Assembly (NCBI GenBank): GCA_963848155.1 | Contig: CAWKCL010000007.1 | Location: 431,002-495,001, forward strand | DNA: 64,000 nucleotides | Reading direction: 5' to 3' | DNA from: an uncultured delta proteobacterium | GTDB taxonomy: Bacteria; Desulfobacterota; Zymogenia; Zymogenales; Zymogenaceae | Shown: in pieces, positions 5,974 through 34,837 of the stretch | How the letters are laid out: the number at the start of each line of letters is the position of its first letter | Position numbering within the stretch: the stretch's first letter is position 1 | The notes under the pieces: generated by a model | The model's database searches: none | Seen by the model: only the letters and a program-made list of their open reading frames with translations | What the model was told of the DNA's origin: nothing | Position numbers and translations under genes: made by a program

Positions 5974-6750
5974 ATGAAGCACCACTTTCTTGACGAAGAG
6001 AGCACCATCGAGAGCCCCATCCGGTCTCTCAATCCGAAGGCGAAACTTATCACTATCATCGCCGTCGTATTGATCGTCGTCTCAACACCCGCGGACGCCT
6101 TTGCCGTCTTTGCCCTCTTCCTCTCGCTCGCGCTTGCCCTGATCGTGATTTCGCGGGTGCCCGTCACGGTATTCCTGAGACGAGCCCTGATCGCCCTTCC
6201 CTTTATCGCGGCTGCATTAGCGGCTGTCCCCTTTGTCTCGGAGGCTCCGGGGACGACCTCCTATTCCCTTGGCATTGGGGGAGCCGCCGTTACCATGACC
6301 GGGTTTCTCCTGGTTTTCAATGTGCTGTGCAAATCGATCCTGTCCATCCTCTTCTTGACCCTGCTGATTTCCTCCACACCCTTTCGCGACCTCGTATCGG
6401 GCCTCCGGGAGCTCAGGGTGCCGACGTTTATAACCGATACCCTCTCGTTCATGTACCAGTACCTCTTTATCATCATGGACGAGATTCAGCGCGTCGCCTT
6501 TGCGCGGGACGCCCGGCTATACGGAAACCGCTGGATCTGGCAGGCGCCCGTTATCGGACATATGATCGGCAGCATCTTCGTTCGCAGCTATGAGCGCGGC
6601 GAGCGGATATTTTTGGCGATGAAGGCACGGGGATACGACAGCAGTATCGGCGTGAGGCCCACGGCCCCCGTTGCCGCACCGGATTATATCTTTACGATAA
6701 TCGTCATCTCGGGGGCCCTGGCCGCACGGTTATTCGGGGTCAGACTATGA
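5974..6750 (+). CDS. cbiQ: ECF transporter transmembrane T component (CbiQ/EcfT family)
   Basis: Multi-TM protein with CbiQ-like sequence (...RELRVPTFITDTLSFMYQY...ARDARLYG). ATGA overlap with the downstream ATPase gene. Start taken at MKHHF. Confidence 0.8.
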   Translation: MKHHFLDEESTIESPIRSLNPKAKLITIIAVVLIVVSTPADAFAVFALFLSLALALIVISRVPVTVFLRRALIALPFIAAALAAVPFVSEAPGTTSYSLGIGGAAVTMTGFLLVFNVLCKSILSILFLTLLISSTPFRDLVSGLRELRVPTFITDTLSFMYQYLFIIMDEIQRVAFARDARLYGNRWIWQAPVIGHMIGSIFVRSYERGERIFLAMKARGYDSSIGVRPTAPVAAPDYIFTIIVISGALAARLFGVRL

Positions 6751-7466
6751 CCGACTATTCCGGCGCAATCCAAATCAGCGACCTTTCTTATACCTATCCC
6801 GACGGCACCCGGGGACTTGCCGGCCTCAACCTTTCCATTTCCTCCGGCCAATCCGTCGCTATACTCGGGCCCAACGGCGCTGGAAAATCGACACTTCTCC
6901 TAACCCTCCCGGGCCTCATCTTTGGAACCGGCCGGATCGTTGTTTCGGGGATTCCCGTTTCCCGCCGAACGGTCCGTGAAGTCAGAAAGCGGGTCGGTAT
7001 TGTCTTCCAGAACCCTGACGACCAGCTCTTCTGCCCCACCGTATATGACGATGTCGCCTTTGGCCCGGAAAATATGGGACTTTCCGAAAACGAGGTGCGA
7101 CGCCGAACCGAAGACGCGCTTTCTTCCATGGGACTTTCGGGATACGGACACCGCTCATCACATCACCTGTCTTACGGGGAGAAAAAGCGCGCCTCGATAG
7201 CCACGATACTGGCGATGGACCCGGCCATAATAGCCTTTGACGAACCGTCGGCGAACCTCGATCCCGAAGGGGTGCACGATCTATCCGCCGTGATCAACGC
7301 GATCACCAAGACCAAGATCGTCGTCACCCACGACGTCACACTCGCCGGCAAACTGGCCGACCGCGCCGTCGTCATGCGCGATGGCCGCATCATCGAAGAT
7401 ATGCCTATGAAGAAGTTTTCCAGCGATAAGAAACGGCAGAGGGATCTCAAACTCGCGTTCGACTGA
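6747..7466 (+). CDS. cbiO: ECF transporter ATP-binding protein (CbiO/EcfA)
   Basis: Walker A GPNGAGKST, ABC signature LSYGEKKR, Walker B IIAFDEPSANLD. Confidence 0.85.
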   Translation: MTDYSGAIQISDLSYTYPDGTRGLAGLNLSISSGQSVAILGPNGAGKSTLLLTLPGLIFGTGRIVVSGIPVSRRTVREVRKRVGIVFQNPDDQLFCPTVYDDVAFGPENMGLSENEVRRRTEDALSSMGLSGYGHRSSHHLSYGEKKRASIATILAMDPAIIAFDEPSANLDPEGVHDLSAVINAITKTKIVVTHDVTLAGKLADRAVVMRDGRIIEDMPMKKFSSDKKRQRDLKLAFD

Positions 7467-7508
7467 TTAGTCAGGCGGCACCGCCTAAAACCCATATCGG
7501 AGGCACCC

Positions 7509-8273
7509 ATGCCGACCACCAAGATCGTCTATCACGACGCGTACCTTACCGACTACCCGACCGCGTCCGTCGAAAAACCGCAGCGGGTCGAGGCGATCCA
7601 TCGGGAGCTCTCGTCATCCGGGTATCCGTTCGTCGAGGCCCGCCCCGGCGACGAGCTGGACGTTCTCCTTGTCCACTACCCGAGCCTCGTGCAGGCCGAG
7701 AAGCGCGACCAGGATCGTTACGAGATCGCCCTTCTGGCGGCCGGCGGCTCGATCCTCGCGGCACAGATCGCAATGGACTCCGTACCCGCATTCGGCCTTG
7801 TCCGCCCGCCGGGCCACCACGCCAGCCCGGGCACCAACTGGGGATTCTGTTTCTTCAACAATATGGCCGTCTCAATTCAACGGCTGATCCTCAAGCGGCA
7901 GATCAAGCGCGCCGTTATCCTTGATATCGACCTGCACTTCGGGGACGGTACCGAGAACTACTTCATGGGACGCAAGGATGTTTCGGTCATTAACGTGCAG
8001 TCGTCGGACCGGGTGGAGTTTCTCGCCCAATGCCGGGACGGCCTCACCCGCTGCGCCCCGTATGACATCATCGGAGTCAGCGCCGGATTCGACCGTTACA
8101 TCAAGGATTGGGGCAGTACGCTTACGACTGAGGATTTCAAGGCAATCGGGGAAATCGTCAAGGAGTTTTCGGAGAAGCACTGCTCGGGCCGGCGGTTTGC
8201 CCTGCTCGAGGGCGGTTACTACCTGCCCGATCTCGGCGTCAACGCCCGAAACTTCATCGAGGGTATGGAATAG
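7509..8273 (+). CDS. Histone deacetylase/acetoin-utilisation (AcuC) family deacetylase, short form
   Basis: HDAC motifs RPPGHHA, GFCFFNN, DIDLHFGDGT. Confidence 0.8.
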   Translation: MPTTKIVYHDAYLTDYPTASVEKPQRVEAIHRELSSSGYPFVEARPGDELDVLLVHYPSLVQAEKRDQDRYEIALLAAGGSILAAQIAMDSVPAFGLVRPPGHHASPGTNWGFCFFNNMAVSIQRLILKRQIKRAVILDIDLHFGDGTENYFMGRKDVSVINVQSSDRVEFLAQCRDGLTRCAPYDIIGVSAGFDRYIKDWGSTLTTEDFKAIGEIVKEFSEKHCSGRRFALLEGGYYLPDLGVNARNFIEGME

Positions 8274-10551: not shown

Positions 10552-11364
10552 CTACTGCTTTATGAGTACCGCGTAAATATTGCTGTAAGTCAAGCGGTTG
10601 AAAACAGGAATATGGGAGCCGATCCGAATAAGCCGGCGAATAACCGTTACGGGAAATATTTCCAAAAGCCGGTAAGTAAACCGATTAATCATCACTGTCC
10701 CGCCGAGATAACCCGATTCAACAACTCTCAGATCACCCGGTAGTATGGACAGTATCTCATCCGGGGTAAAAAGGAAGAGGTGATCTTCGGCTTCCGGCCC
10801 GTACTGCCTCTTTTCTAATTCTGCACGTCGCTTTTGCTTCATTACCGATCCAAATGTCGGCAATTTCGTAAGCAGCCGTGAACCGTTCGGCGTTGTTAGA
10901 AGTATCATTCCCCCGGATTTAAGGACGCCGGTTAACCCGGCGAGTATAATTTCGGGATATGCACAATGTTCAATCAGCTCACCCAGGATTATCACATCAA
11001 ACGTATTGGGCATGAAACACGGGGTATCCAGATTTCCGCATATCCATGCGATCCTCCCGTGCTCGTATTTCATCTGCGAATAGCGAAGAAAGTCCCGCCT
11101 GATATCGACGGCTGAAACGGAAAACCCCCCCTCGGCAAGCATGAGTCCTAAATTACCCTGCGCACACGCAAAATCCCCTACTCTGAAGCCCTCACCTTCG
11201 GGATAGCCTCTTTTCACTATCTTAAGTACTGTATCTATCCTATCGATATACGACAGGCAATCCGGATGATGCGGCCGGAGATTGTCGATTTCGCGTGTGT
11301 CATATGCGCAGATTTTTTTTAACCCGTTTTCGAGATGAGTCAATAGGGATAGACTGTTTCTCAT
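10552..11364 (-). CDS. Class I SAM-dependent methyltransferase
   Basis: VGDFACAQGNLG (motif I) and ILGELIEHCAYP...VLKSGGMILLTTPNG. Convergent with the previous methyltransferase. Confidence 0.8.
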   Translation of the reverse strand: MRNSLSLLTHLENGLKKICAYDTREIDNLRPHHPDCLSYIDRIDTVLKIVKRGYPEGEGFRVGDFACAQGNLGLMLAEGGFSVSAVDIRRDFLRYSQMKYEHGRIAWICGNLDTPCFMPNTFDVIILGELIEHCAYPEIILAGLTGVLKSGGMILLTTPNGSRLLTKLPTFGSVMKQKRRAELEKRQYGPEAEDHLFLFTPDEILSILPGDLRVVESGYLGGTVMINRFTYRLLEIFPVTVIRRLIRIGSHIPVFNRLTYSNIYAVLIKQ

Positions 11365-11445
11365 AGGCGCTTCGTAGTTCAGCCTGACATGACACCGGCG
11401 GCGATATAAGGCCGGTAATCCCCAAGCATCCGACTCTCTTAGAGT

Positions 11446-12612
11446 CTATTTTGCTGTTTCTCCGCTCACCAGCGTTATCCTGACGATCTCCGGGTGCGTG
11501 AAGACGCGGACCGGCGGGCCCCACGTACCCAACCCGCTGGAGACATATACCTGCATCGAGTCGACCCGTCGGTACCCGTAATCCACGAGGTAGACCATCC
11601 GAGTGATGAAGTTGAGGGGGAACATCTGGCCATGATGGGAATGTCCCGACAGCATCAGGTCTATCCCGTAGCCCGAGTATTCCTTCATCCTGATGGGCGG
11701 GTGAAACATCAGGATCGTTGGGAGATTCGGGTCCCCCTGTTTCATAAGCGCCGGTACCGACGCCTCTTCTTTCTTGCCGAACCTGATGTCGGCGGGGTCG
11801 TCCAACCCTATGAGGTTGACCAGGCCCGGCAGCGTCACCGCCTCGTCCCGTAGCACGCGTATCCCCGCCGACTTCATGAATCTCTCCGCCTTCTCGTGGC
11901 CCGCGTAGAACTCGTGGTTGCCCAGCACCGCGTAGATCCCCCGCGGCGCTTTGAGCCCCGCGAGAATCTCGGGCATGTGATCCAGCCCCTCCACGCTCTC
12001 GTCCAGCAGGTCTCCCCCAATGAGGATCACATCCGGCTTCTGTTCGTTGATCTTGTTTACGAAGGCCGTAAGGCGCTTCTCGTGGATGATAAGCCCCAGG
12101 TGCACGTCAGAAACATAAACGATCGTCGTGGGATTGTGCGCCTTTGAAAGAGCCGGCAGCGCCACGTCAAGCGGCTTTACCCTCAGGAAGAGCGTATTGA
12201 CCCACCCGAGGAGGAGGATGAGCGCTACCAGCCCGATCGACCCGAAGAAGACGATCCTTCCAAAGAAAACCCGGTTTGCTGTGAGTTTTGCGGGGATGAG
12301 GGGGACGAAGATCTGGGCCAGGCGTACGATATCTGAGGCAAACGCGATCAAAAAGAAATAGAGCATCGCCCCCATCCAGACCGACCCGACGATCGTCAGG
12401 ACGTTGCACATCTGGCAGTAGGATGTATTCCTGAAAAAGATGCTCACCGGGAATGCCAGGACGACCGCGGCAAACAGGATCTTCAGGGAGATGACCCACC
12501 TCCCCTCCCCGGACAGCGCCGCAAACCCGCGAAAATAGATGTAGGTATTGATCAGCGTATAGACCGAGATGGCGACGATCAGGAAGATAACGAAGGCCTT
12601 CGTGCTCTGCAT
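11446..12612 (-). CDS. Membrane-anchored metallophosphoesterase (calcineurin-like, YkuE-like)
   Basis: N-terminal TM helices followed by the VSDVHLG, GGDLLD and GNHEFY phosphoesterase motifs. Confidence 0.8.
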   Translation of the reverse strand: MQSTKAFVIFLIVAISVYTLINTYIYFRGFAALSGEGRWVISLKILFAAVVLAFPVSIFFRNTSYCQMCNVLTIVGSVWMGAMLYFFLIAFASDIVRLAQIFVPLIPAKLTANRVFFGRIVFFGSIGLVALILLLGWVNTLFLRVKPLDVALPALSKAHNPTTIVYVSDVHLGLIIHEKRLTAFVNKINEQKPDVILIGGDLLDESVEGLDHMPEILAGLKAPRGIYAVLGNHEFYAGHEKAERFMKSAGIRVLRDEAVTLPGLVNLIGLDDPADIRFGKKEEASVPALMKQGDPNLPTILMFHPPIRMKEYSGYGIDLMLSGHSHHGQMFPLNFITRMVYLVDYGYRRVDSMQVYVSSGLGTWGPPVRVFTHPEIVRITLVSGETAK

Positions 12613-12751: not shown

Positions 12752-14875
12752 ATGAATATACGACGCTTCCTTTTAGCAGCCCTGGCGCTACCTCTGGCAT
12801 TACTCATCGCGCCGGGCTTGGCGATTGCCGACGGGATTATCATAATCGATCCGCCGCCCCATCCGCCCAAACCGATCGTGCCCCTCGAGGTGAAGTACCA
12901 CAAAGTAACCGTGGAGATCGACAACCAGGTTTCCACCACCCACATCGATGAGGTCTTCGTCAATCCCAACAATATGGACCTGGAGGGGACATTCATTTTT
13001 CCCCTGCCTGAGCGGGCCTCGTTTTCCGACCTTGATATGTACATCGACGGGAAGAAGGTCGAGGGAAAGATACTGGACGCCAATGAAGCCCGAAAGACCT
13101 ACGAGGATATCGTCAGGCGGCTCAAAGACCCGGCCCTTCTCGAATACGTGAACCGCAACACCTTCAAGCTCCGGGTCTATCCGATCCCCGCCCACGGGGA
13201 AAAACGCATCGAGATAACCTACACCGAAACCCTCACGTACGATTTTTCGACCGTCAGGTACGTGTACCCTCTCAATACCGAGAAGTTCTCGTCGGCCCCC
13301 CTGCACGAGGTCTCCCTGGATGTGTCGATCAAATCGTCTGCTCCCGTTACCACCGTCTACTCCCCGTCCCACGAGATAGACATCGCCCGAAAGGGAGACC
13401 GGGAGGTCAGGCTTTCCTACGAGGATAAAAACGTGTTGCCCGACCGGGACTTCGTCCTCTACTATACCCTTTCCGATAAGGAGGTGGGCCTATCGCTGAT
13501 TACCTACAAAGACCGCCGCGGCCCCGGATATTTCATGCTCCTTATTTCCCCCCGGCAGGATATTGACCCGTCGGACGTCGTCCCCAAAGACGTGACGTTC
13601 GTGCTGGATACCTCCGGCAGCATGAAGGGGGAAAAGCTCGTTCAGGCCAAGGACGCCCTGAAATACTGTATCGGGGCCCTCAACACCCGTGACCGCTTCA
13701 ATATCATCCGCTTTTCCACCGACACGGAAAAGTTCCGCTCGGGGCCGGTCTCGCCCGACCGGGCCAACCGGGACGCCGCGTTTGAGTTTATCGACGGCAT
13801 AGTGGCCCGCGGCGGGACCAACATCAACGACTCGCTGACCGAGGCGCTGGCCGGCGCCCCGGACAGGAATCGGCCCCGCATCATCGTCTTTATCACCGAC
13901 GGCGATCCGACCGTCGGGATTACCGATATCGGCTCCATAATCAAGAATGTCGCCGCCGCAAACCGCGCGAAGGCCCGGATATTCGTCTTCGGCGTCGGGG
14001 AGGATATCAACACGCACCTCCTTGACCGGATATCCTCGGGCAACCATGGAACGTCTGAATATGTCACGCCGACCGAGAATATCGAATCGGTCGTCTCCGG
14101 CTTCTTCACCAAGATCAACGACCCCGCGATGACCAACCTCGTGCTGAAGTCGAGCCGCGTAAAGCTCAAGGACTACTACCCGGTAACGCTGCCCGACCTC
14201 TTCGCCGGCTCCCAGGTCACCGTGGTCGGAACGTACGAGGGATCCGGGCCCTCCACCATCACCCTTTCGGGGACTACGGGGACGCGCGAAACGGTATTTG
14301 AGTATCCGGTAAACTTCTCCGAACGCGACGCAAAGAGCGACTTTCTCCCCCGCGTCTGGGCCAACCGGAAGGTGGCCTATCTGCTTGACGAGATCAGGCT
14401 GAACGGAGAAAACAAGGAGCTGGTCGACGAGATCAAGGACCTGGGCATGACCTTCGGCATCGTAACGCCTTACACGAGCTTCCTGGTGCTGGAAGACAGG
14501 GAACAGGGATTTGAGGCCCCGTCACCGGCGGCCCGGGATGACCTCGATATGATGTCGGGAAGCGGGATGCTGAAGGAAGAACGGGGCGGGTTTGCCACGA
14601 AGTCATCCGAAGCGGTGAGGGACATGAAGGAAAAGACGTTCGTGGACACCCCCAAGCTGATGAGCATCAAGCAGGTGGGCGACCGGACGTTCCTGCTGCG
14701 CGATAAAATATGGATCGACTCCGCGTATATCGAAGGGACAAGAACGACCGATCTCTCGTTTGATTCCGACGCCTACTGGAAGCTCATCGGCGACCATCCG
14801 GATATCGGGAAATTCCTGGCCCTCGGCAACAGCGTGATCTTCACCTACGACAGCGTATGGTACCGGGTGAAGTAG
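12752..14875 (+). CDS. Secreted VIT (vault/inter-alpha-trypsin) plus von Willebrand factor A domain protein
   Basis: 707 aa. Signal peptide MNIRRFLLAALALPLALLIAPGLAIA. VIT-like N-terminal region and vWA MIDAS motif DTSGSM. Confidence 0.8.
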   Translation: MNIRRFLLAALALPLALLIAPGLAIADGIIIIDPPPHPPKPIVPLEVKYHKVTVEIDNQVSTTHIDEVFVNPNNMDLEGTFIFPLPERASFSDLDMYIDGKKVEGKILDANEARKTYEDIVRRLKDPALLEYVNRNTFKLRVYPIPAHGEKRIEITYTETLTYDFSTVRYVYPLNTEKFSSAPLHEVSLDVSIKSSAPVTTVYSPSHEIDIARKGDREVRLSYEDKNVLPDRDFVLYYTLSDKEVGLSLITYKDRRGPGYFMLLISPRQDIDPSDVVPKDVTFVLDTSGSMKGEKLVQAKDALKYCIGALNTRDRFNIIRFSTDTEKFRSGPVSPDRANRDAAFEFIDGIVARGGTNINDSLTEALAGAPDRNRPRIIVFITDGDPTVGITDIGSIIKNVAAANRAKARIFVFGVGEDINTHLLDRISSGNHGTSEYVTPTENIESVVSGFFTKINDPAMTNLVLKSSRVKLKDYYPVTLPDLFAGSQVTVVGTYEGSGPSTITLSGTTGTRETVFEYPVNFSERDAKSDFLPRVWANRKVAYLLDEIRLNGENKELVDEIKDLGMTFGIVTPYTSFLVLEDREQGFEAPSPAARDDLDMMSGSGMLKEERGGFATKSSEAVRDMKEKTFVDTPKLMSIKQVGDRTFLLRDKIWIDSAYIEGTRTTDLSFDSDAYWKLIGDHPDIGKFLALGNSVIFTYDSVWYRVK

Positions 14876-23065: not shown

Positions 23066-23995
23066 TCACGATACAATACCCGACGATATCCCCGGCCTCG
23101 TCAATCCTGCGTGGATACCTCTCTTGACTTTCCATGATGTATCCCATGAACCGGTCAGCCACACCTGACGGTCGAGCTCCTGCCCGCCGAGACGTATCAC
23201 CCAGTCGGTGTGGGCTACCCAGACCTCAAAAATCCCGGGAACGGCAAGCTTCGATACGAGGGATAAATCCCTCTTCTCAAGTGCGGCCTTGATCTTTTTC
23301 ATCGGCTCGCCCGGAGCACTGAAGAGAGGGGCCGAAGAATAAGAGTCTATAAATACCATGTACGGATCGAGAAGCTCTGTGGCGGTAGTGAAATCGTCTT
23401 CCAGTTCCACGCCCGGATATGTCTTCATGAAGTAGGCGTACGCCGCCCGCGCCTCATCGAATCGGTGGAGGTATACCAGCGCCTCGATCCGATCTGAAAA
23501 CGTGCCGAGCAGGGCGCTCGAGAGCCGCGCACTCCCGGTGATTGAAGCCCGGGAAAAATTTCGTTCGATCTGATCTATAATGAGCCGGCACTGGCCCTCT
23601 GTTTCCATTAGCTTTCCAGACTCGCGTAATTGATCAAGCCTAGTTATTTCCTCGGAGAGCGAGGGCACGTCCCGGTAGGATGTTTCCGCGCCCGGGTCTT
23701 TGGTATTAAGCGCCGTATCGAAGACCCATCCCTCGACTCCCCGATATCTGGCCAAACACCAGTGCCCGGAGCTGCCCCCCATCGTATCGGTTTCTTTTAA
23801 ACAGAGGATAATGAGTACCGCCTCTCCCGCGCCCGGAGAGACGACCGTTTCCGAATTGACGTCGGGCCGTTCCCTGAGGTCCGTCTCGTCTCCCGCGAGA
23901 AAGGCCTTATGGTTTTCGGCGCCAAGAAGTGAAAGAGGAGAAAATAGACATCCTATCCAGGTAAATAGGAGGAATGTGAGCACACGATACTGCAT
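23066..23995 (-). CDS. Secreted hypothetical protein
   Basis: 309 aa. Signal peptide MQYRVLTFLLFTWIGCLFSPLSLLGAE. No recognisable domain. Confidence 0.5.
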   Translation of the reverse strand: MQYRVLTFLLFTWIGCLFSPLSLLGAENHKAFLAGDETDLRERPDVNSETVVSPGAGEAVLIILCLKETDTMGGSSGHWCLARYRGVEGWVFDTALNTKDPGAETSYRDVPSLSEEITRLDQLRESGKLMETEGQCRLIIDQIERNFSRASITGSARLSSALLGTFSDRIEALVYLHRFDEARAAYAYFMKTYPGVELEDDFTTATELLDPYMVFIDSYSSAPLFSAPGEPMKKIKAALEKRDLSLVSKLAVPGIFEVWVAHTDWVIRLGGQELDRQVWLTGSWDTSWKVKRGIHAGLTRPGISSGIVS

Positions 23996-25529: not shown

Positions 25530-26993
25530 ATGCCGCTCCTAATCCACAACTCGCTTTCCGGCAAAAAAGAGGAATTCGTTCCCATGAACCCCGGGACCGT
25601 CACGATGTATGTCTGCGGGATCACCGCCTACGACTATTCACATATCGGCCACGCCCGGGCCTACGTGGCGTTTGACGTAATCTACCGATACCTGAAATAC
25701 AAGGGGTATGCCGTCACCTACGTGCGCAACTTCACCGATATCGACGACAAGATCATTAAACGGGCCAACGAATCAGGGCGCGACACGAACGCCCTTTCGG
25801 AGCAGTTTATTCATGAATATCACGACGACATGGACGCCCTCGGAATACTCCGGCCGGATATCGAGCCCAGGGCCACCGGGACGATCCCGGCCATGATCGA
25901 CCTCATCACCCGCCTCTTCGAAAAGGGCTATGCCTACCGCGCCGGCGACGACGTGGCGTTTTCCGTCAAGAAGTTTGCCGGATACGGGAAGCTCTCGGGC
26001 AAGAGGATCGACGACCTGGAATCGGGGGCCCGGGTCGAAGTGGACGACAAGAAGCAGGACCCCCTCGATTTTATCCTCTGGAAGGCCGCCAAGCCGGGTG
26101 AGCCCTCCTGGGAGAGCCCCTGGGGCAAGGGGCGCCCCGGCTGGCACATCGAGTGCTCGGCCATGAGCGGCAGCATCCTGGGCGATACCATCGATATCCA
26201 CGGCGGGGGCAAGGACCTCGTCTTCCCCCATCACGAAAACGAGATCGCCCAGTCGGAGGCCGCCACCGGCAAACCCTTCGTCCGCTACTTCGTGCACAAC
26301 GGGTTTGTCAACATCGACTCGGAGAAGATGAGCAAATCCACCGGCAAATTTTTCACCGTCCGGGATATCAGGAAACAGTACCATCCCGAGGTAATCCGGC
26401 TCTTCCTCCTCTCGGTCCAGTACCGCAATCCCGTGGACTTTTCCGAGAAGAACCTCCGCGACGCCGGCGAAGCCCTCGACCGGCTCTATACGACCAAGGC
26501 CCGCGTATTCGAAACAGGCGCAGGAGCGACCACCCGCCGGTCCCAAACCGCGGACCTAAAGGAGATCGATGACGCGGCTTCGGCCTTTGTCGCGGGGTTC
26601 GCCGAGGCCATGGACGACGACTTCAACACGGCCCTCGTGCTGGGAAGGCTCTTTGACCTTTCCCGCCTGTTCAACCGGGTGCTCGATCGGCAAAAGGACA
26701 CGCCCGAGGCCCAACGGGTATCGCTGGCCGGCGCATGGAAGACGATTTCCGACGCATTAGGCGTTCTGGGTATACTGGGACGGGACCCGTCCGTCTACTT
26801 TCAGGAGGTAAAGGGGCTCAGGCTTGCCGGAGCGTCGCTTGCCTCCGCCGATATCGAGCGGCTCATCGCCGAGCGCAACGCAGCCCGAAAGGCAAGAGAC
26901 TTCAAGCGGGCCGACGCCATCCGCGATGAGCTGACCGGAGGCGGCGTTATCCTCGAGGACGGCCCGGACGGCACGACCTGGAAGCTGAAATAA
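25530..26993 (+). CDS. cysS: Cysteinyl-tRNA synthetase
   Basis: HIGH motif (HIGHARAY) and KMSKS motif, with a MYVCGITAYD N-terminus. The ORF opens at 25485, but the canonical start is MPLLIHN at 25530. Confidence 0.9.
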   Translation: MPLLIHNSLSGKKEEFVPMNPGTVTMYVCGITAYDYSHIGHARAYVAFDVIYRYLKYKGYAVTYVRNFTDIDDKIIKRANESGRDTNALSEQFIHEYHDDMDALGILRPDIEPRATGTIPAMIDLITRLFEKGYAYRAGDDVAFSVKKFAGYGKLSGKRIDDLESGARVEVDDKKQDPLDFILWKAAKPGEPSWESPWGKGRPGWHIECSAMSGSILGDTIDIHGGGKDLVFPHHENEIAQSEAATGKPFVRYFVHNGFVNIDSEKMSKSTGKFFTVRDIRKQYHPEVIRLFLLSVQYRNPVDFSEKNLRDAGEALDRLYTTKARVFETGAGATTRRSQTADLKEIDDAASAFVAGFAEAMDDDFNTALVLGRLFDLSRLFNRVLDRQKDTPEAQRVSLAGAWKTISDALGVLGILGRDPSVYFQEVKGLRLAGASLASADIERLIAERNAARKARDFKRADAIRDELTGGGVILEDGPDGTTWKLK

Positions 26994-27027
26994 ACCGGCA
27001 AACCACCTATTTACTGGATAGAGCCAC

Positions 27028-27804
27028 ATGTCCTCACACGTTGTCATCCACGAAAACCGCGGCCCCGTCTCATGGGTCATCTTCAACCGGCCCGAAATCT
27101 ATAACGCGTTCAACCTCGAGCTGGCCCGCGAGGCGTTTTCGGCCCTCTCGCGGGCGATCGAGGACCCGGCGACCAGGGTCGTGGTCCTGGCGGGCGCCGG
27201 TAAGGCCTTCTCTGTGGGGGCCGACGTGCTTGAGGTCGGCGCATCCGACGATCCGCCCCGGATCATCGGAGAGCTTGCCACCATCGCCCACCGCGCGATC
27301 GCCGAGGTCAGGCAGTCCCCCAAGCCGGTGGTCGCCGCGATAAACCGCCTTGCCGCCGGATACGGTCTTGCGCTTGCCCTGGCCTCCGACATCAGGATCG
27401 CCACCGAGCGGCTGAGGCTCCGGTACGCGTATTCATCCATCGGGCTGACCGGCGACGGCGGCATCAACTGGACCCTCCCCCGCCTCGCGGGGACCGCCCG
27501 CGCGTTGGAAGTGGCGCTCCTTGCCGAAGACATCCACGAACAGGAAGCGGCCCGCCTCGGGATTGTCACGAAGTTCGTACCCGAGGACCGTCTTGTCGAG
27601 GAGGCCCAGGCGCTCGCCGAGCGGATAGCGGCGCTGCCCCCCAGGACGGCCTCCGCTATCAAGCGGATGATCTACGGCTCGGCCGCAAGCGACCTCCTGG
27701 TTCACCTGTCGGTCGAGCATGCGGCGCTGACGGACGCCGCCCGTACCCCGGAGTTCGCGGACCTCTTGAAGAGTCTCCTCGAGCAGTTTTCACCCAAGGG
27801 ATAG
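27028..27804 (+). CDS. Enoyl-CoA hydratase/isomerase (crotonase family)
   Basis: 258 aa with crotonase fold signatures (VVLAGAGKAFSVGADV...). Confidence 0.85.
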   Translation: MSSHVVIHENRGPVSWVIFNRPEIYNAFNLELAREAFSALSRAIEDPATRVVVLAGAGKAFSVGADVLEVGASDDPPRIIGELATIAHRAIAEVRQSPKPVVAAINRLAAGYGLALALASDIRIATERLRLRYAYSSIGLTGDGGINWTLPRLAGTARALEVALLAEDIHEQEAARLGIVTKFVPEDRLVEEAQALAERIAALPPRTASAIKRMIYGSAASDLLVHLSVEHAALTDAARTPEFADLLKSLLEQFSPKG

Positions 27805-28101
27805 GCGCGTGCGTATGATCGCGGCCGCCGCAGCGGGCGTGACGAAGTCCTCAGGAAATGCGGCGTCCGAGGGTGACGGCCGGGAAACCGGACACATAAG
27901 GCGATACTATAACAGCAACCCGTTAGCTTACCCGCTTTGAACGATACCCGAGCATAACCATGGGAAGACCGGCTTTTCTCTATCACCTCATGATGCGCTT
28001 CTATAAGCCCTTTCAGCGGCTCGAGCGCCTCCGGCTCTTCGGCGGTCCCGTCGAGCGATGAAACGAGCTCTTCCCACATCATTCCGGTCAACGAATCGAT
28101 C

Positions 28102-28749
28102 GTGTCGGAAGGTGCGGTCATACTCCCGATGAAGATCATAGCCGCCTTTGTCAGGCGGGCCGATTCGATCGCGATCCTGCGGGAATGTCTCTGCCGCCGC
28201 GGCGAAGGCTGTTCCGCCTACCCGATCGACCTCGGGTGTCTCCTCCTGGGCCCGGCCGCCCGGGACCTCCATGGGGGATTGGGCCGGATAGTCGGCCCGG
28301 ACGAGGCCCTCCGGCACGCCGAGCGGGCGATCCGTTCGGGGCTTACTCCCCTGGTCGTGCACAACACGTTTGACGCGTGGCTGTGGGGGCTCGACTACCG
28401 GCGGATGATGAACATCTGTTTCTGCTGTGACTGCTGCTGCTCGGTCCGCCGGGCCGTCCGCCTCGGTATTGATACCGGGGCGTCTTCCGCGATGCACCGG
28501 CTGGACGGTCTTACCGTCTCCATCGACGATCGATGCGACGGCTGCGGCGCATGCGTGACGGAGTGCTTCGCCGGTGCGATCCGAATCACGCGGGGACGTG
28601 CCGTTATCGACCAGGAACGGTGCAAGGGATGCGGCCGGTGCATGGCCGTCTGCCCAAAGGCCGCGATCACGATGCGCCTCGACCCCCGCCTCGACACCGC
28701 GGGACGGCTCCTGGCCCATTACGGGAAGAGAAGCAGCGTAGGAATCTGA
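28102..28749 (+). CDS. 4Fe-4S dicluster ferredoxin-domain protein with an additional CFCCDCCC cysteine cluster
   Basis: Two CxxCxxCxxxC(P) motifs ([23 protein letters not shown]) plus an upstream [14 protein letters not shown] start. The N-terminal extent is uncertain. Confidence 0.55.
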
Positions 28750-28784
28750 ACCGCCAGCACGAAAAACAGGGAGAAGTCTGCATA

Positions 28785-30791
28785 ATGCCGCCGACACGCA
28801 CATCACCGTTCGATATGGTTACCGATTTCGTCCCCAGGGGGGACCAGCCCCGCGCCATCGGCGAGCTGACCGAGGGAGTAATCCGCGGCGACAAACACCA
28901 GACGCTGATGGGCGTCACCGGCTCCGGCAAGACCTTCACCATGGCCAACGTCATAAAGAACACGGGTCTTCCGAGCCTTGTTATCGCCCCCAACAAGACG
29001 CTGGCCGCCCAGCTCTACTCCGAGTTCAAGACCCTCTTCCCTCACAACGCCGTGGAGTATTTCGTCAGCTACTACGACTATTACCAGCCCGAGGCCTACA
29101 TCCCCCGGACCGACACGTTTATCGAGAAGGACACGGCCATCAACGAAGAGATCGACAAGATGCGCCACTCGGCCACCCATTCGCTCCTCTCACGGGACGA
29201 CGTCATCATCATCGCCTCGGTCTCCTGCATATACGGCCTCGGCTCGCCGGACGCCTACGGCGACATGGTGGTCCGGCTGGTCGTGGGTGAGACGTTCTTT
29301 CGGGATGAGCTCTTGCTGTCGCTGGTCGAGAGCAAGTACGACCGTAACGACGTCGATTTTTCCCGCGGGACCTTCCGCGTCCGGGGGGACACCGTCGAGA
29401 TATTTCCCGTCTACGAGGACGACCGCGCCGTCCGCATACAGTACGACGGCGACACCGTGGAAAAGATCAGTTATATCGATCCATTGCGCGGCCGGGTCAT
29501 CCAGACGCTTGACGAGGTAAGCCTTTTCCCCGGCAGCCACTATGTCACGCCCCGTGACCTGATGCTCAGGGCCGTCGAGACGATCCAGGAGGAGCTCGCC
29601 CTTCGTATCGACTTCTTCCGGGAAAACAACAAGCTCATTGAGGCCCAGCGTATTCAGGAGCGCACCAATTTCGACCTCGAGATGATGCGTGAGATCGGTT
29701 ACTGCCAGGGGATCGAGAACTATTCCCGGCACCTGACCGGCAGAAAACCGGGGCAGCCCCCGCCGACGCTCCTGGATTACTATCCCAAGGACTGGCTCAT
29801 CTTTATCGACGAAAGCCACATCACGGTCCCCCAGATCGGGGGGATGTTCCGGGGCGACCGGTCCCGCAAAGATACCCTCGTCCAGTACGGGTTCCGGCTC
29901 CCCTCGGCGCTCGACAACCGCCCCCTGACCTTCGAGGAGTTCGAGGGCATGGTAACCCAGGCGATCTACGTATCGGCGACACCGGCAGACTACGAGCTTA
30001 AAAAGTCCGGCGGCGTCGTGGTGGAGCAGGTTATCCGGCCCACGGGACTCATGGACCCCAGGGTGGAGGTGAGGCCGGCAACCCACCAGGTGGACGACCT
30101 CTATGACGAGATCAAGAAACGCGTGGCGCTCGGTAACCGCGTCCTCGTGACGACGCTGACCAAGCGGATGGCCGAAGAGCTGACGACCTACTACGCCAAT
30201 CTCGGCCTTCGAACCCGCTACCTTCACTCCGAGGTGGATACGCTGGAGCGCGTGGCGATTATTCGGGACTTACGGCTCGGCAAGTTCGACGTGCTCGTCG
30301 GCATCAACCTGCTGAGGGAGGGCCTGGATATCCCGGAGGTGTCGCTCGTGGCGATTCTGGACGCCGATAAGGAGGGGTTCCTGCGCTCCGGGCGCTCCCT
30401 CATCCAGACCAGCGGCCGGGCGGCCAGGAATATCGACGGGACGGTCATCATGTACGCCGACGTCGTCACCCGGTCGATGGACCAGGCCATCGCGGAGGCC
30501 AACCGCCGCCGCACGATTCAGAACGAGTTCAACATAAAAAATAATATCACGCCCGAAACGATCAAAAAGGAGATCAGCGAGATCCTCAGCTCGGTCTACG
30601 AGCAGGACTACTACACCGTCAAGAAGGAAGAGACGGAGGAGCTGAAGTTCAAGTCCCAGCACGAGGTCAAGCGCTACATCGAAAAGCTCAAGAAGCAGAT
30701 GCGCAAGGCAGCGCACGACCTCGACTTCGAGTTAGCGGCGGAGATCAGGGACAAGATCCTCGAGGTCGAGAAGATGGAGATGATGTCCTGA
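28785..30791 (+). CDS. uvrB: Excinuclease ABC subunit B
   Basis: N-terminus ...[18 protein letters not shown], Walker A GVTGSGKT, helicase motifs. GGGAGAAG RBS before the ATG at 28785. The ORF-track ORF begins further upstream at 28533. Confidence 0.9.
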
Positions 30792-30998
30792 CCCCTCGAA
30801 AGCATGGACGCCGTCGTCACGTTCCGCCCGCCGGAAACTGAGGGTTGTATCCGCCCCTATTCTCACGTCTCCGTGCCGCCGGTACGGCTTCCCGCGAATG
30901 AAAACGGCCCCTCATGCCGGGGCCGTCGAATATCAATCGGCGATTCTCCCGATTCCTACCCCGTCAGTGCCTCCGACGACGATATCCGTATAGAGCAG

Positions 30999-32174
30999 TC
31001 ACTCAACCGGGTAGGTCGAGCATGTATGGACGAATCCGTACTGCCTGTCGACCCGGCGGCGCGCGTCGGTCTCCGGTTCGATAAAGACCTCACCAGAGAT
31101 CAGCTCGGCCCGGCAGATCCCGCACTGGCCCGACCGGCAGCGGCTGTCCGCGGCGATCCCGGCGCGCTCCAGCGCCACGAGTATCGGCTCCTCCGCCTGC
31201 GCCGTGATCGTCTTCTGGTCCCAGTCACGCAGGACGGTCAGTTGATACTCCCTTCCCTGCGCCTTCTTCGGGAAATCGGGGTGCGCGGCGATGAGCCGGT
31301 TCGGCCCGGAGACCTCCCATCGGAGCCTCCGGCGGGGAATCTTGAGCCTTTCGGCCTCTTTGGTGAAGAAGCTGTAGAGGGCCTGCGGGCCGCAGACAAA
31401 GAATGACGTATCGGCAATGTCGCCGATTTCCCGTGCGATCAGTTTCGCGTCGATGAACCCCGTGGCGCATTTCTCCGTGCCGTCCGGCTCGCTCACCACG
31501 TAGCAGACCCTCAGGCGGTCGGCGGCAGTTTTGGACAGCGACACGAGCTCCTGTTCGAAGAGGGCGTCCGCCATCGTCCTGACGCCGTAAAGAATCGTAA
31601 GCGTCGCGTCCACGCCGCCGTGGGCAACCTCGCGGGCCATCGAGAGAAACGGCGTGATCCCCGAGCCCCCCGCAACCGCCACGATATTACGCGCGTCTCT
31701 CAGCGGCTCGTGGTAAAACTCCCCGTGGGGACCGGAGGCCGATAGACGAGTCCCTTCCCTGAAGGTCGAGAATACGAGGGGAGACACAAACCCGTCCGAG
31801 AGCCGCTTGACGGTGATCTCATAAAACCCGCCTCCCGCCCCGTTCGCTTCGAAGGGGGCCGACGAGATCGAATAGGGGCGGCTGACACGCACCCCGTCGA
31901 AGGTCCCCTTCAGCGACAGGTACTGCCCCGCGCGAAACGGCGGCAGTTTTTCGGTCGCGCCGTCAGGCTTCAGCCGAAACGTCCGGGCGTCCGGACCGTG
32001 CTCGACGATTCCCGAGACAACGAGGTCCAGGACCGGGGGGTGCAGGATCAAAACGGTTCGCCGTACCGGATCGGTGACATCGATAAAGGGGCGGGCCGCG
32101 GCCTTCCTGGCGGCGCGCTGGGCCAGCGCCCCCGCCGTCCTGCCAACTCCCGCGATAAACCGAAAGAGATTCAT
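30999..32174 (-). CDS. PDR/VanB-type oxidoreductase: FNR-like FAD/NAD(P)-binding reductase with a C-terminal plant-type [2Fe-2S] ferredoxin domain
   Basis: RPYSIS flavin-binding motif, GGSGITP NAD-binding motif, and C-terminal CRSGQCGIC...C cluster. The start ATG overlaps the stop of the upstream gene (ATGA). The ORF-track extension to 32372 is probably not translated. Confidence 0.75.
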   Translation of the reverse strand: MNLFRFIAGVGRTAGALAQRAARKAAARPFIDVTDPVRRTVLILHPPVLDLVVSGIVEHGPDARTFRLKPDGATEKLPPFRAGQYLSLKGTFDGVRVSRPYSISSAPFEANGAGGGFYEITVKRLSDGFVSPLVFSTFREGTRLSASGPHGEFYHEPLRDARNIVAVAGGSGITPFLSMAREVAHGGVDATLTILYGVRTMADALFEQELVSLSKTAADRLRVCYVVSEPDGTEKCATGFIDAKLIAREIGDIADTSFFVCGPQALYSFFTKEAERLKIPRRRLRWEVSGPNRLIAAHPDFPKKAQGREYQLTVLRDWDQKTITAQAEEPILVALERAGIAADSRCRSGQCGICRAELISGEVFIEPETDARRRVDRQYGFVHTCSTYPVE

Positions 32175-33763
32175 CGTACAGCGCTCCTTCCGATGACCTC
32201 TCGTCCCGATTTCCGTTTCATCTTTCCCAGCACCGCCAGCGCCGCAAGCCTGCCGGTGCTGATCGCGGCCGAGTATCCCTGGACCAGCAGCCCGTGTCCA
32301 CCGACAAACTCGAGCCCCTTGACGTACCCCTCCAGCGGCAGGGACAGCGCCCGGGCGATCACCGAGTCCCATACGTCATGCTCGTAGCCGTAGACGACCC
32401 CCTTGTGAGAGCCGGTATACCGGCAGAAGGTCTGCGGGGCGGCCACCTCGATCTCCTCGATGTGGTCAAAGAGATTCGTGCCCACCGTCCGCTCGACGTG
32501 CCCAACGGCCGACCGGGCAAACCGCCGTTTCGTCTCGAAATAGTCGTCCGGCGATACCTGACCCCATACGTCCGCTCCGTAGGATTGGTTGAGGATCAGC
32601 TCGCATGTCCCCGGAGGGGACACACCGGGCACGACGTGGTTGGGGCACAGCGCCGAGGTGGCGATATGGGGCACCAGCGTATCCCCGATATCGTATGCCT
32701 TCCTGGTATCCATGTCCGGGCCCAGGTAGTATTCGTGATGATGGAGACCCAGGTCATGTGCCGGGCGGTCAAGCCCCATGTACACGACGAAGAGGCTGAT
32801 GCCGTGCTTCCGGGCGGCGGTGAGCTTCTTCGCTCCCCGCGGCACCGCGTCGGCGGGGCTGATGAGCCGTCCGTACACAGTTGTCGGGGACGCGTTCGAA
32901 ATCACCCAGTCTGCCCCGATCCGGCGCCCCCCGCTCGTCTCGACCCCTATAACCCGTCCCCGGTCCACCAGGATCTTTTCCACCCGCGTGTTGTAACGGG
33001 TCTTACCCCCCAGCTCCCTGATCTTCTTGTCTAACACCGTGGAGATTTGAAACGAGTTGATCGGCGGGTAGTAGCACCCCCTGGTGAGCACCGAATTGAT
33101 GGCCGTCGCCCAGATTGTAAAGGACATCCGCTCAAACGGGATGCCGATATAGGGCCAGAAGACGCCGAGGATGGATACGGCCTTCGGCGGCAGGTGAAAC
33201 CGATCAGTCACCTCTTTTGCCGTATACCCCGCCGTGGCCAGCAGCGTCTTGTGGTTCCTGACAAGCACCATCGGATCGGGCTTCCCGTCGGCCTCGGCGA
33301 TGTAGTCGATCGCGCGCCCGATCTCGAGGCACAGGTCCATATACTCGCGCAGCGGCTTGAAGCTTCCCGGAACCTCTCCCGCCACCACGTCGATGAACCC
33401 GTCCATGTCAAACGGGACGTCTACGTTGATTCCCTCGTCGGAGAGGATCAGGTGATACCCCTGGTCCACCCTGACCATCGGGATGTTCAGATCGAGTTCG
33501 TCCTCGAAGAGCTTGCGAACGAACCCCTTGTTTCCTGCCGGCCCGTAATCGGTCAGGATGTGGAGAGACGCCTCGAACTCGAAGCGCCCCCGGCGAAAGG
33601 AGGTGGCAAATCCCCCGGGCATACCGTGCTGCTCCAGGAGCATTACCCCGACTCCCTCCCGGGCAAGCTTCGCCGCGGCCGACAACCCCCCCATTCCCGA
33701 TCCGAGAACGACGACTTCCGTAACCTCGTCGAAGGATGGACGAGAGGCTCCATTGTGCTTCAC
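32171..33763 (-). CDS. CrtI/phytoene-desaturase-family FAD-dependent oxidoreductase (amine-oxidase fold)
   Basis: 530 aa. N-terminal Rossmann VVVLGSGMGGLSAAAKLAREG. Length and sequence typical of the CrtI-like desaturase/isomerase family. GTG start. Confidence 0.75.
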   Translation of the reverse strand: MKHNGASRPSFDEVTEVVVLGSGMGGLSAAAKLAREGVGVMLLEQHGMPGGFATSFRRGRFEFEASLHILTDYGPAGNKGFVRKLFEDELDLNIPMVRVDQGYHLILSDEGINVDVPFDMDGFIDVVAGEVPGSFKPLREYMDLCLEIGRAIDYIAEADGKPDPMVLVRNHKTLLATAGYTAKEVTDRFHLPPKAVSILGVFWPYIGIPFERMSFTIWATAINSVLTRGCYYPPINSFQISTVLDKKIRELGGKTRYNTRVEKILVDRGRVIGVETSGGRRIGADWVISNASPTTVYGRLISPADAVPRGAKKLTAARKHGISLFVVYMGLDRPAHDLGLHHHEYYLGPDMDTRKAYDIGDTLVPHIATSALCPNHVVPGVSPPGTCELILNQSYGADVWGQVSPDDYFETKRRFARSAVGHVERTVGTNLFDHIEEIEVAAPQTFCRYTGSHKGVVYGYEHDVWDSVIARALSLPLEGYVKGLEFVGGHGLLVQGYSAAISTGRLAALAVLGKMKRKSGREVIGRSAVR

Positions 33764-33837
33764 CTGAGACTCCCCTTGGTATACGATTGAAGTAACCCGC
33801 GATATGACTTCGAAGCAGGGCCGAGCCCGTAGCGTCC

Positions 33838-34652
33838 TTATCGGAATATCCTTCTGATCACCCGATTCGTCTTGTGTTTGATGACGTTGCCGTCTCTCTT
33901 GATATCATTGACGGCCGATTCGCCCTTGTCCTGGAGGTATTTCAGGCGGCGCTCAATGATCTTTTTCGTGCGTTTTCCCTTGAAATCAAGGTTACGCAGC
34001 AGCTTGATCCGGTTAGCGTCAACCCACCGCCCGGGCTTTTCGGGGATCTTTCCCTGACGAGCCGGACGCCCTCGTTGCCCCTGACCAGGATGGGGGAAAG
34101 GCCCTTCCTGACGACGTCCTTGGGCTTGAGCTCCACGGCTCCGTCCGAACACAAAACGTCGGTCTCCCCGGCCGCCTTATCATGAGAGACGACGAAGTCC
34201 GTCCCCCGCACCCCCACCGTCGTGTTTTCCGTCTCAATGATAAATCTCGATTCGGCGTTCAGGAGCGGCGCCACGACGGCGCGCACCTTTCCGTAGAGGA
34301 GGTTCAGGACGTTTGACGATTTCTTGGTTACCTCGACGTAGCCCGCCTCTCTCACGACGACCCGGCTTTCCGGCCCGACCCGCACGACGCTCTCGTCCGG
34401 CAGCAGCAGTTCCACCGAGCCGTCCTTTCCCGTATCTATCCGGTCTCCCGTGTTAACGACCCGATCTTCCGAGAGGACAACTGACGTATTCCGCCCGGCC
34501 GGCATGAGCGTGGCCTCGCCCTCAACATAGGCCACCGTAAGGGGCGGGTACGCTTCCTCGCCGCCGAGGCAGAACCCGGTAAGTCCGATCATCAGTATCA
34601 GAGACCAGACAAACAGCGCGGCGGCAACTGCGACAATTCGCTGTCGATTCAT
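33838..34652 (-). CDS. FecR-domain membrane protein (apparent frameshift in the C-terminal region, 33942..34152)
   Basis: TM helix, then a FecR-type beta domain (VGVRGTDFVV). The ORF 33838..34152 continues in another frame. No ECF sigma factor is adjacent. Confidence 0.5.
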
Positions 34653-34837
34653 GATCTTCCTCCGATCGAAACGATGGAAAGGAGTATACCATGCCAGCCG
34701 ACGAGCTTTTCCATAGGTTTCTGCAGTCAATCTGAGGATATATCACATGCCGCGGCGTATCCCGAGACCCGACCCGTTGCTATTTTCGTGTCGAACAGCT
34801 ATAATTTGTTATATAGATTCAGAGGTTATCGCCCGGC

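Follow-up and report, generated by a model that had tools for sequence, protein, structure and literature searches.

Gene anatomy of the locus

The stretch of DNA analysed here (the window) comprises 64,000 nucleotides of contig CAWKCL010000007.1 (assembly GCA_963848155.1, positions 431,002 to 495,001 of the forward strand), from an uncultured delta proteobacterium of the Zymogenaceae. On its minus strand lie two overlapping genes, one encoding a flavoprotein of the CrtI superfamily and the other a reductase with an FNR-like flavin/NAD(P)H module and a C-terminal plant-type [2Fe-2S] domain (Table 1). Their gene anatomy, cofactor motifs, fold, coupling, fusions, nearest characterised relatives and recurrent neighbours were determined computationally. 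Coordinates, domains and the ATGA overlap had been described in an earlier note on the same DNA, and all were borne out on the minus strand. The note had put a FecR-domain gene directly downstream; that gene was found upstream, outside the conserved unit, and the pair sits between it and uvrB, which lies downstream and is convergent. The uvrC gene is divergent, beyond FecR.

The flavoprotein gene begins with GTG, 6 nucleotides (nt) after a GGGGAG Shine-Dalgarno sequence. At the gene junction (...GTA CGA TGA), its TGA and the ATG of the reductase share the letters ATGA. The best start for the reductase is this ATG, at 32174, giving 391 amino acids (aa); the longest open reading frame (ORF), of 457 aa, begins within the flavoprotein gene. 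No Rfam family, terminator-like site or riboswitch was found between or before the two genes. Gene overlaps of 4 nt are commonplace in operons, and the ATGA overlap taken alone is little evidence of a functional link; it is the conservation of the pairing that is beyond chance.

Table 1. Features of the gene pair and its upstream neighbour, in window coordinates.
Feature	Position	Strand	Basis
CrtI-fold flavoprotein, 530 aa, RetSat/CRTISO-like branch, catalytic component (predicted role)	32171..33763	minus	ORF, Pfam, predicted structure, family profile
FNR-like flavin/NAD(P)H reductase with C-terminal plant-type [2Fe-2S], 391 aa, electron-donor component (predicted role)	30999..32174	minus	ORF, Pfam
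ATGA stop/start overlap (translational coupling)	32171..32174	minus	read from sequence
Shine-Dalgarno-like GGAAGGAG, 9 nt before reductase ATG, within flavoprotein gene	32184..32191	minus	read from sequence
GSGMGG dinucleotide-binding (FAD) motif, flavoprotein residues 21-26	33686..33703	minus	translation
His68, flavoprotein motif RFEFEASLHIL	33560..33562	minus	translation and alignments
RPYS flavin-binding motif, reductase R99-S102	31869..31880	minus	translation
GGSGITP NAD(P)H-binding motif, reductase G169-P175	31650..31670	minus	translation
[2Fe-2S] ligand region C346-x4-C351-x2-C354-x30-C385, reductase	31020..31139	minus	translation and alignment
FecR-domain protein with N-terminal transmembrane segment, upstream neighbour of the pair	33942..34730	minus	Pfam FecR

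Conservation of the pairing and gene fusions

Pairing was assessed in 33 non-redundant loci, namely those in which both genes could be called, with the close relatives of the window (L001, L003-L005) excluded. In 33/33 the flavoprotein gene was immediately followed by the reductase gene in the same orientation. The adjacency on which the proposal in the earlier note depended was thus found in Bacteria and in Archaea, and was accompanied by repeated fusions. In eight species-level genomes the reductase directly follows the flavoprotein gene, including Clostridia at 39-42% identity; the same order recurs in a Lokiarchaeota contig, a Bacillota metagenome-assembled genome (MAG) and several long metagenome contigs, often with overlaps of 1-8 nt. 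Across most homologous loci the two genes overlap or are separated by a gap of <20 nt.

The pairing also has a clear boundary. A metagenome scan with the family alignment gave 80 loci, and pairing was counted where the downstream sequence sufficed. The reductase was directly downstream in 24/25 loci at 31% identity or above, as opposed to 1/42 at 30% or below. Measured with the family profile, all loci scoring at least about 444 bits and with room downstream were paired, and lower-scoring loci were unpaired. Pairwise identities of the flavoproteins correlate with those of the reductases (r = 0.82; 28 loci), a correlation that is partly shared phylogeny.

Fusions of the two proteins occur in both orders. 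The reductase precedes the flavoprotein in seven proteins of Syntrophales and Smithellaceae, P0032 and six like it, which are about 917 aa long; the flavoprotein precedes the reductase in nine checked representatives of 851-916 aa (P0193, P0194, P0200, P0211, P0224, P0231, P0248, P0252 and P0255). Because the orders are opposite, the fusions imply independent events and a direct functional link between the two proteins. We conclude that the pairing is not due to chance and that the gene coupling is obligatory.

Three loci depart from the simple arrangement in their own ways. The sole unpaired relative at 31% identity (L046:5935-12998) has, in place of the reductase, a 1,789-aa ORF that follows with a 4-nt overlap. 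At L098 the reductase is seemingly split into gene calls of 92 and 261 aa. At L004:8001-9583, in a 96%-identical MAG, the flavoprotein gene was matched in three tblastn segments in different frames, which suggests frameshifts that could stem from assembly errors or mark a pseudogene.

The flavoprotein and its nearest relatives

The flavoprotein contains the Pfam domains Amino_oxidase and NAD_binding_8. In an 80-sequence family alignment, G21 of the GSGMGG motif is invariant and G23 and G26 are conserved in at least 90% of members. The AlphaFold2 model (predicted local distance difference test 93.7; predicted template-modelling score 0.92) found its best solved match by Foldseek in CrtD (4rep; E = 1.8e-30, template-modelling scores 0.78/0.84), followed by CrtI (4dgk; E = 3e-22), and profile alignment with these desaturases spans end to end. 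Motif and fold together identify a CrtI/amine-oxidase fold with an N-terminal Rossmann motif for flavin adenine dinucleotide (FAD).

By fold the protein belongs to the CrtI superfamily, yet it lies outside the CrtI, CrtD, CRTISO and CtmAB families by their defining tests. It scored 120 bits against the crtI_fam model TIGR02734 (cut-off 238.1), 109.3 bits against the CRTISO equivalog TIGR02730 (carot_isom; cut-off 586.9) and 84-86 bits against the CrtD models (cut-offs 550-580), and its match to the CrtO model comes solely from the N-terminal Rossmann motif. The CtmAB family and its relative delta24-SD are defined by two paralogous subunits encoded together; the window and 31/33 loci encode just one flavoprotein. 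The two exceptions, L015 and L019, carry a tandem flavoprotein-reductase-flavoprotein-reductase array, so that each flavoprotein has a reductase of its own.

A profile was built from the 80 family members and used to score all characterised relatives at one database size. The RetSat and CRTISO sequences were authentic database entries, and the delta24-SD sequences of Sterolibacterium (supplement of PMC11061730) stood in for CtmA and CtmB. RetSat scored highest (rat 217 bits, human 207 bits), followed by CRTISO of four plants (200-206 bits), CrtD (164 bits), CrtI (126 bits) and delta24-SD (beta 101 bits, alpha 85 bits). BLASTP aligned residues 13-514, the full length, with human RetSat at 23% identity (E = 2e-17), and hhalign extended over 476 columns of RetSat (E = 1.2e-38); the BLASTP match to delta24-SD covered 97 residues (E = 1e-9). 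The flavoprotein is therefore no closer to delta24-SD than to the other clades of COG1233, and judged by these scores its closest characterised relatives appear to be RetSat, then CRTISO.

RetSat, named all-trans-retinol 13,14-reductase in its database sources, shares with the flavoprotein the motif LEQH...GG...EF[DE]..[IL]H, in which the His stands at +47 from the first Gly of GxGxxG. It differs in being eukaryotic (vertebrates), in its N-terminal extension and in having no adjoining or fused reductase. RetSat performs a net C=C saturation of a lipophilic isoprenoid; to our knowledge, its physiological electron donor is not defined.

This His is residue 68 of the flavoprotein and is conserved in 82% of 127 relatives. 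Its position is that of the corresponding His of human and rat RetSat and, aligned without gaps, of His57 of delta24-SD alpha; it is occupied by Ser in CRTISO, Thr in CrtI and Phe in CrtD. In delta24-SD alpha, His57 carries covalent flavin mononucleotide (FMN; PMC11061730). Compared with the flavinylation consensus G-F-[LR]-x-[NS]-[TL]-H-A, the flavoprotein (E-F-E-A-S-L-H-I) matches at F, S, L and H and differs at G, [LR] and A, an agreement of 4/7. In the tandem loci (L015:7809-13506 and L019:2194-7880) the first flavoprotein copy has Gln in place of the His (RFEFEISVQCI). The possibility that His68 is diagnostic of the reductase-coupled clade was weighed and dismissed, because many unpaired relatives share it and these paralogues lack it. 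Judged by this distribution, it appears to mark a broad RetSat-like group.

The reductase

The reductase has the Pfam domain order FAD_binding_6 (57-154), NAD_binding_1 (167-269) and C-terminal Fer2 (321-389), that is, the flavin, NAD(P)H and plant-type [2Fe-2S] order of the phthalate dioxygenase reductase (PDR) type, with all four Cys ligands. The flavin and cluster motifs listed in Table 1 are intact, as are GGSGITP and CGP of the NAD(P)H site, and all of these motifs show full or almost full conservation. Among 28 reductase homologues the four [2Fe-2S] Cys are invariant and R99 is 96% conserved; a conserved N-terminal extension carries an invariant His45-Pro46.

Matches in the PDB include 2pia, 1krh, 6laa and 6kbh, and similarity extends to PaaE, Hcr, BenC and the reductase part of self-sufficient P450s. 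The protein belongs to none of the named equivalogs (PaaE, Hcr, BenC, GbcB), falling under every NCBIfam cut-off (PaaE 134.8 vs 420.8, Hcr 123.8 vs 383, BenC 97.9 vs 430). PDR, PaaE, Hcr and CYP116B use this domain order to donate electrons, and Hcr is an example of its anaerobic use. In all systems of this architecture known to us, electrons pass from NAD(P)H to the flavin, on to the [2Fe-2S] cluster and thence to an acceptor protein. The fusions described above are analogous to P450-PDR fusions; the difference lies in the partner, which here is a flavoprotein and not a Rieske, di-iron, haem or hybrid-cluster protein.

Hosts and genomic neighbourhood

Named hosts of family members are Syntrophales, Smithellaceae, Syntrophaceae, 'delta proteobacterium' MAGs and Ca. 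Zymogenaceae, together with Oscillospiraceae, Lachnospiraceae, Clostridiales, Sedimentibacter, Tissierellia and Loki-, Hermod- and Promethearchaeota; all of these lineages are anaerobic. Members from human-gut Oscillospiraceae and Clostridiales are numerous: one cluster at 90% identity holds 4,833 sequences, and one member was found on at least 1,000 contigs. The locus in the window is 96% identical to that of an uncultured delta-proteobacterial MAG and 89% identical to that of a Ca. Zymogenaceae MAG.

For the 33 loci, the two genes flanking the pair to either side were surveyed by Pfam, which gave 114 proteins. The counts were 9 each for GntR and FCD, 5 for AMP-binding, 4 each for acyl-CoA dehydrogenase and FadR_C, 3 for other amine-oxidase-fold flavoproteins, and 2 each for ECH, thiolase and MaoC. 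None of the 25 most recurrent families was a Rieske, di-iron, haem or other oxygenase partner, and none belonged to carotenoid biosynthesis (crtB, crtE, crtY etc.). The earlier note had also made its proposal depend on the reductase not belonging to some known, unrelated pathway; the NCBIfam scores and these neighbours gave no sign that it does.

Individual loci add further detail. L011 and L013 encode an MFE-2-type hydratase, SCPx-type thiolases, SCP2, a DUF35/ChsH2-like protein and an OYE-type reductase, a set that resembles the enzymes of 2-methyl-branched (pristanic-type) beta-oxidation. A geranylgeranyl-reductase-like protein and a GltD-like Fe-S flavoprotein accompany the pair at L008, a patatin phospholipase at L007, and a YhhN protein and a hydrolase at L015. 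In a Smithellaceae MAG (L097:3392-4984) the genes after a reductase-flavoprotein fusion encode a GMC-family (alcohol-oxidoreductase-type) flavoprotein and a small 4Fe-4S ferredoxin. At L098:3215-5671, some 2.3 kb upstream of the pair and beside an AMP-binding fragment, an 818-aa protein matches the CD36 family (PF01130), which is known chiefly for lipid scavenger receptors of eukaryotes. The gut loci are minimal, with a divergent SulP/STAS transporter and a GntR/FCD regulator beside the pair. The thread that runs through these neighbourhoods is a regulator responsive to carboxylates or acyl-CoA, accompanied by lipid or branched-chain acyl metabolism; a single pathway is not conserved. In a Clostridia MAG (L006), the pair is flanked on both sides by amine-oxidase-fold flavoproteins of 415 and 420 aa (6378-7625 and 10827-12089).

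In the window itself the neighbours are uvrB, uvrC and FecR, with no carotenoid context. The FecR gene accompanies the pair only in the close relatives L001 and L003-L005, and FecR was not among the recurrent neighbour families of the 33 diverse loci, from which those relatives were excluded; a role for FecR as a third component was rejected, since its presence is lineage-specific. Gene order (cysS-ECH-uvrB-pair-FecR-uvrC-acyl-CoA ligase) is kept in related MAGs. The G+C content is 0.61-0.64 at 26001..34000 and 0.53-0.57 in both flanks; given that the order from cysS to uvrC is retained, this stretch is not obviously an island.

Several other features of the window were recorded. The uvrB ORF (28533..30791, plus strand) is listed as 752 aa, but UvrB models align only from residue 93, so that the true start is probably about 90 codons further downstream; a minus-strand ORF of 272 aa (27988..28806) overlaps this N-terminal extension. 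No Pfam family matched, at E <= 1e-6, an ORF of 309 aa (23066..23995, minus strand) adjoining an MFS/GPH transporter. A gene for a protein with VIT and VWA domains (12752..14875, plus strand) lies some 16 kb from the pair, and a similar protein is encoded directly downstream of the pair in a Clostridiaceae locus (L007:10796-13120); this recurrence is probably coincidence.

Discussion

The reading we favour, with a confidence only a little better than even, is that the pair forms a two-component flavoenzyme that is driven by NAD(P)H, works independently of O2 and most likely saturates a C=C bond of a lipophilic substrate. In the proposed mechanism, hydride from NAD(P)H would reduce the flavin of the reductase, whose C-terminal [2Fe-2S] cluster would then hand electrons one at a time to the FAD of the RetSat/CRTISO-like flavoprotein. 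Once reduced, this FAD would act on a C=C bond of the substrate without O2; net saturation, as in RetSat, would be the likeliest outcome and isomerisation a less likely one. The substrate would probably be an alcohol, acid or acyl chain of unsaturated or isoprenoid type. Three parts of this scheme are inferred, namely the direction of electron flow, the net saturation and the class of substrate. On thermodynamic grounds the reductive direction would be the feasible one, since the potential of C-C desaturation is too high to reduce NAD(P)+; the reverse, a desaturation feeding NAD(P)+, would be implausible.

There is a biochemical rationale for a dedicated reductase. CRTISO needs reduced FAD for a non-redox reaction, and CrtI works with oxidised FAD and O2 or quinones as acceptors (PMC3382138). 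For the flavoprotein, the dedicated reductase and the anaerobic hosts speak against dehydrogenation in the manner of CrtI. The two closest relatives of the flavoprotein, RetSat and CRTISO, are thus the members of the CrtI superfamily that operate with a reduced flavin, and a partner that supplies electrons would suit an enzyme of their kind. The earlier note had suggested a reductase-driven, saturase- or isomerase-type relative of CrtI with isoprenoid or lipid substrates. Of the readings compared, this one has the best support, with the substrate and the reaction as its putative parts. The note had also held that CrtI-like enzymes have no dedicated NAD(P)H:ferredoxin-type partner, which was too strong. 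The operon of the limonene dehydrogenase CtmAB of Castellaniella defragrans, a COG1233 enzyme, encodes the [2Fe-2S] ferredoxin CtmE and the NADH:ferredoxin reductase CtmF, and a ctmE mutant fails to grow on limonene (PMC4109377). CtmAB with CtmEF is a partial precedent for the pair, and is the only described COG1233 enzyme genetically linked to such partners. Our literature search turned up no study characterising the family, and no paper in which a protein akin to RetSat or CRTISO has an FNR-[2Fe-2S] reductase of its own, whether separate or fused.

Several observations weigh against this reading. No member of the paired family bears a functional name in the sources consulted, the names in use being 'NAD(P)/FAD-dependent oxidoreductase', 'prolycopene isomerase' and 'phytoene dehydrogenase-like'. 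The isomerase CRTISO scores nearly as high as RetSat, and sequence alone cannot separate saturation from isomerisation. The genomic contexts are heterogeneous: the unit in gut bacteria consists of a regulator and the pair only, and the pair in the window stands between uvrB and uvrC. Regulators of the GntR/FCD type sense many small carboxylates, not acyl-CoA alone. Finally, the position of His68 is the covalent-flavin site in delta24-SD and CtmAB and so would point to dehydrogenase or hydroxylase chemistry; this pointer is itself ambiguous, since many relatives outside the paired family share the His and one of the tandem paralogues has Gln there.

Among the alternatives, the one that survives best is an enzyme like CRTISO, a redox-neutral isomerase working on reduced FAD. 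It would catalyse cis-trans isomerisation or double-bond migration in a polyene or acyl chain, and the reductase would merely keep the flavin reduced, in a non-stoichiometric manner. The high profile score of CRTISO and its use of reduced FAD for a reaction without net redox change (PMC3382138) both speak for such an enzyme. Double-bond isomerisation is moreover a classic auxiliary step beside beta-oxidation genes. Known isomerases that depend on reduced FAD, such as CRTISO, nevertheless have no dedicated or fused reductase, and the motif residue is the His of RetSat and not the Ser of CRTISO. A saturase fits better than a reductively activated isomerase because the obligatory 1:1 coupling and the independent fusions in both orders suit stoichiometric electron delivery. 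On balance we regard an isomerase as unlikely, though deserving to be kept in mind.

More doubtful is an enzyme of the CtmAB/delta24-SD type that would hydroxylate or desaturate an allylic position anaerobically, using water or an electron acceptor, with the FNR/[2Fe-2S] protein as a reductive activator or as part of the accepting chain. Such enzymes are likewise O2-independent and act on the allylic position of isoprenoids (PMC4109377, PMC11061730). The genetic tie of CtmAB to CtmE and CtmF lends this alternative some weight, as does the alignment of His68 with the flavinylated His57 and the partial agreement with the flavinylation motif, and one-electron donors would suit semiquinone chemistry (PMC11061730). 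The sequences, however, are distant (delta24-SD reaches 85-101 bits, RetSat and CRTISO about 200). In addition, CtmAB and delta24-SD are heteromers built from two paralogous flavoprotein subunits, with covalent FMN, a separate ferredoxin and reductase, and a substrate that is oxidised; here a single flavoprotein gene is the rule. Lifting electrons from allylic C-H oxidation up to NAD(P)+ would also be thermodynamically unfavourable, and in some paired paralogues Gln replaces the His.

An O2-dependent two-component monooxygenase or ketolase, CrtO-like or resembling class IA oxygenases, with the reductase serving as in Rieske and P450 systems, had been raised in the earlier note as an oxygenase-like alternative, and we judge it very improbable. 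The FNR-[2Fe-2S] domain order is indeed typical of the oxygenase reductases PDR, BenC, MmoC and CYP116B, which are found among the PDB and NCBIfam matches. The hosts, however, are strict anaerobes, including Asgard archaea and Syntrophales; no oxygenase component recurs beside the pair in the 33 loci; Hcr shows the same type of reductase working anaerobically; and the score against the CrtO model reflects the Rossmann motif only. An ordinary carotenoid desaturase (CrtI, CrtD or CrtN) that stands beside an unrelated reductase by chance is hardly credible: some members are annotated as phytoene dehydrogenase-like or diapophytoene desaturase, and CrtD is the best fold match, but the flavoprotein scores under all CrtI, CrtD and CRTISO equivalog cut-offs, the recurrent neighbours in the 33 loci include no family of carotenoid biosynthesis, and chance is contradicted by the 33/33 adjacency, the identity threshold of the pairing and the fusions.

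If the pair is a saturase, the choice of substrate can be narrowed by speculation only. RetSat reduces the C13=C14 bond of retinol, next to an allylic alcohol, and the same motif occurs in phytol, geraniol and farnesol. Given the pristanic-type neighbours at L011 and L013, saturation of a prenol or isoprenoid acid is an attractive specific guess. The pair and its fusions might even be a missing enzyme with which microbes of anoxic habitats hydrogenate the double bonds of lipids or isoprenoids, a suggestion that we consider improbable as it stands and put forward tentatively. One speculative candidate would be a reaction on phytol or other prenols in which the allylic C2=C3 bond is saturated on the route to phytanic-acid-type products; another, equally speculative, would be the biohydrogenation of polyunsaturated fatty acids by Oscillospiraceae and Lachnospiraceae of the gut and rumen.

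Enzymes of the CrtI superfamily are usually viewed as stand-alone. In the present case a sharply bounded clade is tied to an NAD(P)H-[2Fe-2S] reductase, in some members within a single chain, and from the obligatory nature of this tie a reductive, O2-independent chemistry is predicted. The names prolycopene isomerase, phytoene dehydrogenase and diapophytoene desaturase that databases give to its members are probably wrong. The clade is phylogenetically wide, extending from Firmicutes of the human gut, where it is abundant, and of sediments to Syntrophales and Asgard archaea. Its natural fusions amount to a self-sufficient enzyme that can be directly expressed and screened, and a defined function could account for orphan hydrogenation of lipids or isoprenoids in gut, rumen or sediment. 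Such a function could also provide a bacterial model for the electron supply of RetSat-type saturases, and if the pair is indeed the missing hydrogenating enzyme, it would reveal the electron-donor logic of these saturases.

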